NCBI GenBank assembly: GCA_964472345.1
Contig: CAYYLB010000002.1
Span: 1 to 49,187 of the forward strand
Direction: 5' to 3'
DNA from: an uncultured Methanosarcinales archaeon
GTDB taxonomy: Archaea > Nanobdellota > Nanobdellia > Woesearchaeales > JAGLXL01
DNA: 49,187 nt
Shown here: piece after piece, positions 253-49,187 of the stretch
Layout of the letters: each line of letters starts with the position of its first letter
Numbering within the stretch: the stretch's first letter is position 1
The notes under the pieces: generated by a model
What the model was told of the DNA's origin: nothing
Databases searched by the model: none
Seen by the model: only the letters and a program-made list of their open reading frames with translations
Position numbers and translations under genes: made by a program

Positions 253-786
253 TCACGGCCGCTTCCATGCGATCTCGTAATAGGTCACGTCGCCTTCATC
301 ATCGGCGATGCCAAGCAGGAGGCGCTTCTTGGTGCTGTGGGCGACGCGGTTCTTTGCGGCGAATTCGTACCAGGTGAGCGTTTCGCCCTCATGGACAGGA
401 TAGACGACCCATTTCGCGTGGTCCTCGCCTGGCTTGATGCCGCGGTCATAGACACGGAAGTCAGCCCCGAACTTCAATGCAGTCTTGACGATGTAGCCGC
501 GGCTGCGCATGTCCTTGAAGACAAGATAGCGGATGTGGAACTTTGGCTCGACTTTCTGCGCTTTCTTGAGGAACGCATCGAAGTCCATCTTCTTGCCGGA
601 CGCGTCCTTGACGCTGAGCTTGCCGGCTTCAAGCAGGTAGAGCCCTTCCAGCAGGGAGAGCTGGACGCGGCCGTTCCCGAGCATTGAGCCGAAGCGGCTC
701 TGGTTGTACAGCTCGCGGGCCGCATCGCTGTTTTCGGTGACGATGCGTTCGCGCCCGAGAACCGCCTTGATCCTGCGTTTTGCCAT
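253..786 (-). CDS. endA: tRNA-intron endonuclease, single-unit alpha type
   Basis: KFGADFRVY...EDHA...STKKRLLLG motifs with Tyr/His/Lys catalytic triad; N-terminal LSLLEGLYLLE; 177 aa. Confidence 0.95.
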   Translation of the reverse strand: MAKRRIKAVLGRERIVTENSDAARELYNQSRFGSMLGNGRVQLSLLEGLYLLEAGKLSVKDASGKKMDFDAFLKKAQKVEPKFHIRYLVFKDMRSRGYIVKTALKFGADFRVYDRGIKPGEDHAKWVVYPVHEGETLTWYEFAAKNRVAHSTKKRLLLGIADDEGDVTYYEIAWKRP

Positions 787-48469: not shown

Positions 48470-48503
48470 GTTTTATATAGTCCTGTTTTCTGAAGAAGCG
48501 CAT

Positions 48504-48641
48504 GTGGGCGTGCCGGAGCGGCCAAACGGGGCAGACTCAAGCTCTTGAGTGCTGAGGTTGCCAACGGCGAACGATGAGGAACACTCTGATGAGCCATCTG
48601 CTGGCTTAGTGCCTCCGCAGGTTCGAATCCTGCCGCCCACA
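48504..48641 (+). tRNA. tRNA-Leu(CAA) with 54-nt canonical intron (48542-48595)
   Basis: Acceptor GTGGGCG/CGCCCAC; anticodon arm GCAGA-CTCAAG^A-TCTGC; long variable arm; GCAGG-TTCGAAT-CCTGC; BHB central helix CTCA/TGAG. Confidence 0.93.
48542..48595 (+). ncRNA. candidate intron-encoded box C/D guide RNA targeting C34 of host tRNA-Leu
   Basis: TCTTGAGT antisense to ACTCAAGA; CTGA at 48552; ATGAGGA at 48574; CTGATGA at 48586. Confidence 0.5.
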
Positions 48642-48731: not shown

Positions 48732-48739
48732 CTTGCATC

Positions 48740-49003
48740 GTGGCCGTCAAAACCATCACCATCACGGAAGAAGCGTACAACACCATCCGCGGACTGAAGG
48801 AAGAACACGAGAGCTTCAGCAACCTCTTCGTACGCCTCGGAAAGCGTTCCCTCACATGCAAGGATATTATTGGCATCCTCAAGCAGACGCCGGAAGAAGC
48901 GAGAGAGCTGGCGCACCGTGTCCACGTGGTTCATGAGCGCCTTGGCCAGGGTCTTGGACGGAGGGCTGCAGATGTTCGTGCTCGACTCCAGCGCACTCAT
49001 TGA
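48740..49003 (+). CDS. VapB-type antitoxin (DUF217-like)
   Basis: KTITITEEAYNTIRGLK..ESFSNLFVRL; overlaps PIN toxin gene; GTG start. Confidence 0.85.
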   Translation: MAVKTITITEEAYNTIRGLKEEHESFSNLFVRLGKRSLTCKDIIGILKQTPEEARELAHRVHVVHERLGQGLGRRAADVRARLQRTH

Positions 49004-49187
49004 GCTGATCAACGGCGGGCCAAGGGCTGCGCGGGTGCAGGCGCTCATGGGCGATGCTCCGCTGGCCACCACAAGCATTTCCATGCACGAGGTCCTGATC
49101 GGCGCACGCTCCGAGAAAGAGCGATTCGTATTCGAAGGGATGTTCTCGTCGATGAGTGTCCTTGCGCATGACGCACGTGCGGCGCTC
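48972..49187 (+). CDS. VapC PIN-domain toxin, truncated by window end
   Basis: Own translation MFVLDSSALIELING...TTSISMHEVLIG shows the PIN acidic motifs. Confidence 0.85.
   Translation, partial: MFVLDSSALIELINGGPRAARVQALMGDAPLATTSISMHEVLIGARSEKERFVFEGMFSSMSVLAHDARAAL

Follow-up and report, generated by a model that had tools for sequence, protein, structure and literature searches.

In Pyrococcus, four C/D RNAs are directed at the wobble base of tRNA-Leu(CAA) and tRNA-Leu(UAA), of tRNA-Met and of tRNA-Trp, and among them only the tRNA-Trp guide (sR50) is intronic (PMC7994747). Passages of the literature describe this euryarchaeal pre-tRNA-Trp guide (Haloferax volcanii; Pyrococcus sR50) as sitting within its own target tRNA, in the canonical 37/38 intron, with an antisense 5' of a D-type box that places C34 at the fifth position, two box pairs (C/D plus C'/D') carrying the guides for C34 and U39, a guide pairing and a splicing fold that are mutually exclusive, and a dependence on L7Ae, Nop5 and fibrillarin (PMC4090602, PMC7994747, PMC11408192). 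A 2014 review terms the Trp intron 'a unique example' (PMC4090602), and passages of a 2024 review mention tRNA-Trp alone, in H. volcanii and further Euryarchaeota (PMC11408192). In P. furiosus, C34 of tRNA-Leu(CAA) has been predicted to be a C/D site (PMC7668247), and the reconstituted ribonucleoprotein (RNP) of Pyrococcus abyssi sR47 methylated C34 of a tRNA-Leu(CAA) transcript (PMC5558902); the Pyrococcus wobble guides and the activity of sR47 thus make methylated C34 (Cm34) of tRNA-Leu(CAA) a plausible modification (PMC7994747, PMC5558902). Here, we describe a tRNA-Leu(CAA) gene with a 54-nucleotide (nt) intron on a 49,187-nt stretch of DNA (positions 1 to 49,187 of contig CAYYLB010000002.1, assembly GCA_964472345.1; hereafter the window) from an archaeon of Woesearchaeota type. 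The intron is probably an intron-borne C/D-type guide with a single kink-turn that directs Cm34 of its own tRNA, a reading supported by the conservation of the guide and its register, by covariation of the guide with its target, by a covarying kink-turn of the right topology, and by host tRNAs that are known wobble targets.

The Rfam tRNA model matched the gene with 39.8 bits (gathering score 29) and aragorn, run with introns allowed, called Leu(caa) with a 54-nt intron, while default ARAGORN called no tRNA in the window. Manual numbering places G37 at 48541 and A38 at 48596. The intron begins C-TCTTGAGT-G-CTGA, where TCTTGAGT is the exact reverse complement of ACTCAAGA, i.e. of nt 31–38 with the exons joined, and where the pair between T48543 and A38 can only form once the exons are spliced. 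Counting upstream from CTGA, the fifth base is G48547, which stands opposite C34; the intron shows both the arrangement of a C/D guide, with the antisense directly 5' of a D-type box and the target at the fifth upstream base, and the sR50-type location in the 37/38 intron of the target tRNA itself, addressing C34. Among 100,000 mononucleotide shuffles of the intron, a complement of at least 8 nt occurred at a frequency of 0.00047 and one of at least 6 nt at 0.025. An earlier note on this DNA had pointed to the start of the intron, the 8-nt complement and the G48547:C34 pair at D+5, as well as to the downstream hairpin, the ATGAGGA and CTGATGA motifs and the 13 nt that would separate CTGATGA from CTGA in a circularised intron, and direct reading confirmed each of these elements. 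Its caveat that GAGTG can instead pair with CACTC is also real, and this helix lies within a regular bulge-helix-bulge fold.

Between the strands of the splicing fold, the intron is laid out as CTGA, a 17-nt hairpin, GAT and GAGG, which can be read as one kink-turn. The sequence fits all parts of this motif: the hairpin is the canonical stem and GAT the bulge of three bases; going by the kink-turn consensus, G48576 and A48577 would make tandem sheared G-A pairs with A48555 and G48554, and the non-canonical stem is extended by T48553-G48578 and C48552-G48579. Such a kink-turn would be expected to bind L7Ae. CTGA and ATGAGGA together supply one C/D box pair, with the topology of a box D'/C' pair, i.e. 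with the antisense 5' of the D-type box. The C-type box deviates from the consensus RUGAUGA at the fifth position and, in many orthologues, also at the sixth, and the intron has no second box pair (C/D plus C'/D'). Since this second pair is missing, we regard the element as a variant that would work like a C/D guide and not as a plain member of the class.

Covariation of the kink-turn was assessed on 56 distinct modules that were anchored on the guide and the first RTGA only, of which four ended inside the hairpin and were removed, leaving 52 aligned sequences. RNAalifold returned a five-pair stem with two-sided changes at every pair, in 3, 20, 27, 12 and 8 sequences, and the five stem pairs of the hairpin alone were paired in 93.9% of cases. 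For the full seven-pair structure, comprising the hairpin and the two pairs of the non-canonical stem, 84.8% of cells were paired as against 29–50% for slid partners, and the covariation score of 0.583 (0.04–0.17 for slid partners) was reached by none of 500 shuffles. In a further count, anchored on nothing but the guide and the first RTGA, pairing at stem positions 1–5 amounted to 96, 86, 91, 80 and 75%, compared with 0–75% for slid partners. The pair 4b:4n varied (CG 16, AU 10, UA 3, GC 2, other 21). Orthologues carry ATGA (39), CTGA (14), CAGA (7), TTGA (7) and other words as the D'-like box, the invariant GA of which is no independent evidence because the detector demanded it, and (G/A/T)ATGA(A)(G/A) as the consensus of the C'-like box. 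Judged from these sequences, the kink-turn is real. A genome-wide scan for kink-turn hairpins gave 43 matches versus about 10 in shuffles and was discarded, as most matches lay in seemingly coding regions and both intron modules of the genome were missed.

Orthologous genes were collected by BLAST against 60 relatives and the genome itself, in which 57 of the 61 genomes matched and several alignments spanned the intron at 72–80% identity, and by an exon-anchored scan of public contigs (ACTCAAG, a gap of 30–60 nt, 3' exon) that found at least 119 stretches, 80 of which were made into loci. The contigs found by the scan are labelled Woesearchaeota, Nanoarchaeota, Nanoarchaeia, Micrarchaeota or Pacearchaeota, and some third-party assemblies are labelled Methanosarcinales. 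Among the matches listed, both sets together yielded 101 introns (97 distinct) from 110 loci, and a pattern detector called a kink-turn in 85 of the 101. Exact TTGAGT occupied positions 2–7 upstream of the box in 57 of these 85 introns and was present with at most one mismatch in 66; the kink-turn of the window was misplaced by the detector and, read by eye, would be the 58th. The six guide positions are 79–91% conserved compared with 54–62% for the leader immediately upstream, and orthologous Leu(CAA) introns from many families again show the antisense hexamer, at the same distance from the NNGA box, together with the kink-turn. No kink-turn was found in the short introns of five Micrarchaeota, one Pacearchaeota and one 'ainarchaeum'. 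In a sample of 401 genomes from the phylum, 88 contained a match to a strict Leu(CAA) pattern, against a single match for the reversed-pattern control, with 86 of 278 genomes of the same order (own genome included) and 2 of 123 from other orders of the class. Genomes G277 and G352 among the 88, and G352 also among the six clean Leu(UAA) hits described below, are flagged as unpublished and were excluded from alignments and intron counts. Five genomes in which the antisense is missing from the Leu(CAA) intron were searched for a free-standing replacement guide, and none of them matched; three of the five are 83–86% complete.

The same module recurs in the introns of other tRNAs. The Trp(CCA) gene of the same genome carries TGGAGC, which is antisense to G31-A36 and again places the G facing C34 fifth from the box; Rfam had no family matching this intron. 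Parsing of 30 Trp loci of relatives gave 18 genes, with 12 loci unparsed, and 16 of the 18 have a kink-turn intron, all with TGGAGC, the remaining two being intronless. Two Trp genes from different families (L214, L219) have C31 in place of G31 and carry TGGAGG, a compensatory change. For tRNA-Met(CAU), a pattern search found 66 matches in 61 of the 251 genomes of the order, versus four in the control. Examination of 26 of the 66 matches (six loci and rows 7–26 of the match table) assigned 20 to elongator tRNA-Met, 14 by pattern and six by eye, and six to chance, outside tRNAs. The elongator introns carry ATGAGT or ATGAGC, and the base facing nt 31 is complementary in all 20 (A31:T in 13, G31:C in 7), two of the 20 sequences being identical and from one genus. 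The Leu(UAA) pattern gave mostly noise (42 matches in 35 genomes, 25 in the control), so that only six matches with the full layout were considered; the introns fetched (loci L244–L248) read TTAAGT in five of five, with A facing U34. Taken together, the introns of all four hosts, Leu(CAA), Trp, Met and Leu(UAA), share the D+5 register and the one-base spacer, and antisense and target covary in three ways, namely at nt 31, nt 34 and nts 35–36.

A search blind to the guide, which asked for TGAG, a space for the hairpin, CRATGA and the T arm, found matches in 29 of 61 genomes and none in the control. The 30 loci tallied, to which 11 further listed matches outside the tally may be added, comprised 14 Trp, 7 Leu(CAA), 4 Met, 3 Leu(UAG), 1 Cys and 1 Ser genes, i.e. 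25 of 30 kink-turn introns in Trp, Leu(CAA) or Met.

These comparisons separate what stands in the interpretation of the earlier note from what does not. Its self-targeting single guide, a box C/D-like core with C34 at D+5, is conserved in orthologues, and in Trp, Met and Leu(UAA) introns its antisense varies along with the host anticodon loop; two of the checks that the note had proposed, the alignment of Leu(CAA) introns and the search of the genome for fibrillarin, Nop5 and L7Ae, turned out in its favour, albeit with a short Nop-domain protein. The junction-spanning pair finds no support: most orthologues are complementary at six or seven positions only (nt 31–36 or 31–37), so that nothing points to the spliced tRNA as the necessary target. 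The 3' CTGATGA as a permuted box C is likewise unsupported, as set out below.

Set beside the euryarchaeal pre-tRNA-Trp guide, the Leu(CAA) element shares the canonical 37/38 position in the target tRNA, the antisense 5' of a D-type box with C34 at the fifth position, the mutual exclusion of guide pairing and splicing fold, and a predicted dependence on L7Ae, Nop5 and fibrillarin. It differs in its host, which is Leu(CAA), with Met and Leu(UAA) added by relatives whose Trp introns are equally reduced, in having one kink-turn, one antisense and no guide for U39, in belonging to a Woesearchaeota-type lineage and not to Euryarchaeota, and in its length of 54 nt, the H. volcanii Trp intron being about 100 nt long. 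P. abyssi sR47 shares the target C34 of tRNA-Leu(CAA) and the guide-RNA mechanism proposed here, but it is encoded by a separate gene, acts in trans and has the usual two box pairs, whereas here the guide lies inside the intron of its target and has a single kink-turn. One kink-turn and one guide are also found in synthetic single-motif ('hemi' or half-mer) C/D RNPs, for which it is reported that hemi C/D RNAs form complexes with the core proteins and are able to methylate in vitro (PMC1635284) and that a half-mer RNP with bound target was crystallised (PMC6239191). Those are laboratory constructs, whereas the intron module occurs in nature, is conserved and is linked to its target across the exon-intron junction. 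Finally, eukaryotic tRNA-Leu(CAA) receives m5C34 from Trm4/NSUN2, which concerns the same tRNA and nucleotide and is likewise intron-dependent (PMC4090602, PMC11408192, as excerpted), but this is a protein-only base methylation without guide RNA or kink-turn, i.e. an analogy and not a homology. A literature search returned nothing on intron-borne guides in tRNA-Leu, tRNA-Met or DPANN, most subscription journals lying outside its coverage.

We infer L7Ae binding, assembly with Nop5 and fibrillarin, methylation, action in cis or in trans and the order of events as follows. L7Ae would bind the kink-turn, whereupon Nop5 and fibrillarin would be recruited. UUGAGU 5' of the D'-like box would then pair with A31-A36, leaving C34 opposite the fifth upstream base for conversion to Cm34, either on the same pre-tRNA, as a 6-bp hairpin closed by G37 and the leader of 3–5 nt, or on another molecule. 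Subsequent refolding would pair the anticodon loop with the 3' end of the intron and the guide with its internal decoy, and the resulting bulge-helix-bulge would be cleaved by EndA and the exons joined by RtcB.

By inspection, the bulge-helix-bulge has C32-A35 paired with 48593-48590 and three-base bulges made up of A36 G37 C+1 and C-2 C-1 A38, while T48543 and C48544 pair with A48589 and G48588. Two three-base bulges, a 4-bp helix between them and position 37/38 are what is expected of an archaeal bulge-helix-bulge intron, and the structure has a computed energy of −16.5 kcal/mol versus −19.5 kcal/mol for the minimum free energy (MFE) fold. About half of the orthologues have ACTC at the site of CACTC (48582-48586), and a 'GCATTTGAGTG' group lacks it. 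As a separate observation, introns with the 3' end GTAAGTC (L008, L009, L012, L019, L031 and others) have a C34-A mismatch in the central 4-bp helix, and many Trp introns (3' ends GAAGAT, GTAGAT, GTTGAT) likewise leave C34 unpaired in the splicing helix. The weak point of the splicing fold thus tends to be the target base.

Several findings weigh against a guide function. Neither a box C 5' of the guide nor, in the tail, a conserved box D was found, and RTGATGA or CTGA occurred in the tail of 0 of 85 kink-turn introns, a count that misread the intron of the window. Compared with the usual 10–12 bp of C/D guides, the guide duplex is short (6–8 bp), with a computed energy of −4.7 kcal/mol for the hexamer in trans. 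Rfam C/D matches for the Leu intron remained below threshold (sR10 with 17.9 bits versus 45; sR19 with 13 bits), and MFE folding, which is uninformative here (z = −0.40 and 0.11), made the intron fold no more stable than shuffles (z = −0.40). The Nop-domain protein of the genome lacks about 85 N-terminal residues found in two translated relatives, and the N-terminal region of Nop5 is the fibrillarin-binding part. Exact hexamers are missing from 28 of the 85 kink-turn Leu(CAA) introns, 19 of which have at least two mismatches, which indicates that the kink-turn outlives the guide in some lineages, and the kink-turn intron of a Ser(GCU) gene (L209) has no visible target. In a 2006 study, an architecture with two motifs is described as 'absolutely conserved' among natural complexes, and a 'hemi' RNA with one motif was active in vitro with its site specificity lost (PMC1635284).

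Much of this would also fit a kink-turn that serves as an L7Ae-binding structural aid for folding of the pre-tRNA or presentation of the bulge-helix-bulge, with the antisense acting only as a stem or as a mask of the anticodon loop and without any guided methylation. Retention of the kink-turn where the antisense has decayed, its presence in the targetless L209, the pairing of the guide of the window with the internal CACTC in a regular splicing fold, the truncated Nop-domain protein and the unmet two-motif rule (PMC1635284, as excerpted) all speak for such an aid, which we nevertheless consider unlikely. A structural stem should covary with its partner in the intron, but the hexamer stays constant while the 3' partner differs by group, and it varies only with the anticodon loop of its host, nt 31 included. 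A fold helper would moreover have no need of the one-base spacer and the D+5 register that are kept in four tRNA species, and the four hosts are precisely the four wobble-target tRNAs of the Pyrococcus C/D RNAs (PMC7994747, as excerpted).

The earlier note had gone further than a single guide in suggesting that the intron might circularise into a permuted two-box C/D RNA with the 3' CTGATGA as its box C. In archaea, circular forms of both tRNA introns and C/D RNAs can occur, as the excerpt of PMC7994747 states, and motif and 13-nt spacing are indeed there, but the arrangement fails because CTGATGA is not conserved: TGATGA occurs in the last 16 nt of just 2 of 101 Leu(CAA) introns, namely that of the window and one 16-nt intron, and the listed Trp introns show, by eye, no conserved box at that site. 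CTGATGA is largely explained by bases that the splicing motif requires, namely those that pair with C32-A35 and with positions +2 and +3 of the intron, and we judge the circular form very improbable. A chance resemblance, in which an ordinary tRNA intron happens to contain short box-like words, could appeal to the brevity of CTGA and ATGA, to the sub-threshold Rfam matches and to the z of −0.40, but is refuted by the rarity of the complement in shuffles, the recurrence of the module in 88 of 401 genomes against one control match, the covarying stem and an antisense that covaries with four anticodon loops.

Features of the window and of related loci are collected in Table 1. All three C/D proteins are encoded in the genome, namely fibrillarin (269.5 bits), the Nop-domain protein (159.2 bits) and L7Ae (100.7 bits). 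Among 22 relatives, the Nop-domain open frames measure between 64 and 369 amino acids (aa), mostly 310–369 aa, and Pfam NOP5NT had no match in the genome and stayed below cut-off in all control genomes too. A regular expression for canonical double-box C/D RNAs matched neither the genome nor its shuffles, and this zero cannot be read as absence because the shuffles gave none either. A profile match to RtcB was found as well.

Table 1. Coordinates of the tRNA-Leu(CAA) gene, its intron elements and further features; plain numbers are positions in the window, and G000 denotes the genome to which the window belongs.
Feature	Position	Strand	Remarks
TATA-box-like TTTATATA	48472..48479	+	about 25-32 nt 5' of tRNA start; read directly; putative promoter element, judging from its position alone
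tRNA-Leu(CAA) gene	48504..48641	+	5' exon 48504-48541, intron 48542-48595, 3' exon 48596-48641
Anticodon CAA	48538..48540	+	aragorn and manual numbering; C34 = 48538, proposed methylation target
Canonical 37/38 intron, 54 nt	48542..48595	+	hBHBh' splicing motif possible
Antisense TCTTGAGT	48543..48550	+	conserved core TTGAGT 48545-48550, complementary to nt 31-36
D'-like box CTGA	48552..48555	+	non-bulged kink-turn strand; G48551 is the spacer base
C-stem hairpin	48556..48572	+	six pairs, one G-A mismatch, AAC loop
Kink-turn bulge GAT (48573-75) and C'-like box ATGAGGA (48574-80)	48573..48580	+	read directly
CACTC	48582..48586	+	partner of GAGTG (48547-51); sequesters guide in splicing fold
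CTGATGA	48586..48592	+	box C lookalike, not conserved; TGAG (48590-93) and GA (48588-89) form a bulge-helix-bulge strand
EndA (tRNA splicing endonuclease)	280-540	-	98.3 bits, 218-aa open frame
Nop-domain protein (Nop5 homologue)	G000:C10:11819-12559		246 aa, Nop domain alone
tRNA-Trp(CCA), same genome	G000:C14:13108-13231	-	46-nt intron tcg-TGGAGC-g-ATGA-hairpin-gatGACA; locus L035/L036
tRNA-Met module loci	L190-L192, L224-L243		ATGAGY antisense, same register

Some observations stand apart from the guide. Many orthologous Leu(CAA) genes have extra inserts in addition to the 37/38 intron, in the D loop or between the 5' strand of the anticodon stem and nt 31 (L009, L011, L013, L014, L016, L022, L023, L025, L026, L028, L029, L031, L032), and T-arm inserts are present in L012, L032 and L033. 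Among the kink-turn introns of other tRNAs, the stretch 5' of the D'-like box in two Leu(UAG) genes (L204, L223) and one Cys(GCA) gene (L205) complements the last two intron bases together with nt 38–40 or 38–41 and places C39 at the fifth position; these three cases, read by eye, may represent a second subclass that addresses position 39 across the 3' splice junction. The upstream stretch in L209 pairs with the tail of its own intron, and the kink-turn of L218 (Leu(UAG)) follows almost immediately after the splice site; an antisense to the anticodon arm is evident in neither. An intergenic TGGAGC-G-GAGA with a weak hairpin and AATGACA, located about 70 nt upstream of a tRNA-Gln gene (G000:C30:6776-6815), could be a free-standing Trp-type guide and is left as probable chance.

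The RtcB match (G000:C6:6347-9169) consists of two pieces, covering profile positions 1–55 and 49–426, about 1.5 kb apart in a single 994-aa open frame, which looks like an intein-type insertion. Downstream of the tRNA gene (window 48733-49187), a 67-aa frame without Pfam match is followed by a frame with a PIN domain (25.4 bits) that runs past the end of the window, and the two resemble a toxin-antitoxin pair of VapBC type. Although the assembly is rated 100% complete, no more than about 15 tRNA genes were detectable in the genome; many genes may either be unassembled or be too interrupted for the finders used.

According to the excerpts of the reviews, Trp is the sole tRNA whose intron guides its own modification (PMC4090602, PMC11408192), and here the same principle would apply to a leucine tRNA and, in related genomes, to the tRNAs for Met, Leu(UAA) and Trp as well, in each case with just one kink-turn. 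Provided that the module acts as proposed, it would widen the known use of tRNA introns, provide a natural test case for the specificity of a half-sized C/D particle and offer a sequence-level marker from which wobble methylation could be predicted in uncultured small-genome archaea. We also put forward, tentatively and with less confidence than for the intron itself, that single-kink-turn ('hemi') guides are a regular class in Woesearchaeota-type archaea that occupies introns in four or more tRNA species and acts on its own pre-tRNA through a switch between guide and splicing fold. Were this true, Nop5 and fibrillarin would be site-specific without a two-motif guide RNA, perhaps by means of a guide tethered to its target, and methylation of the wobble base would be one selective reason for keeping these tRNA introns.

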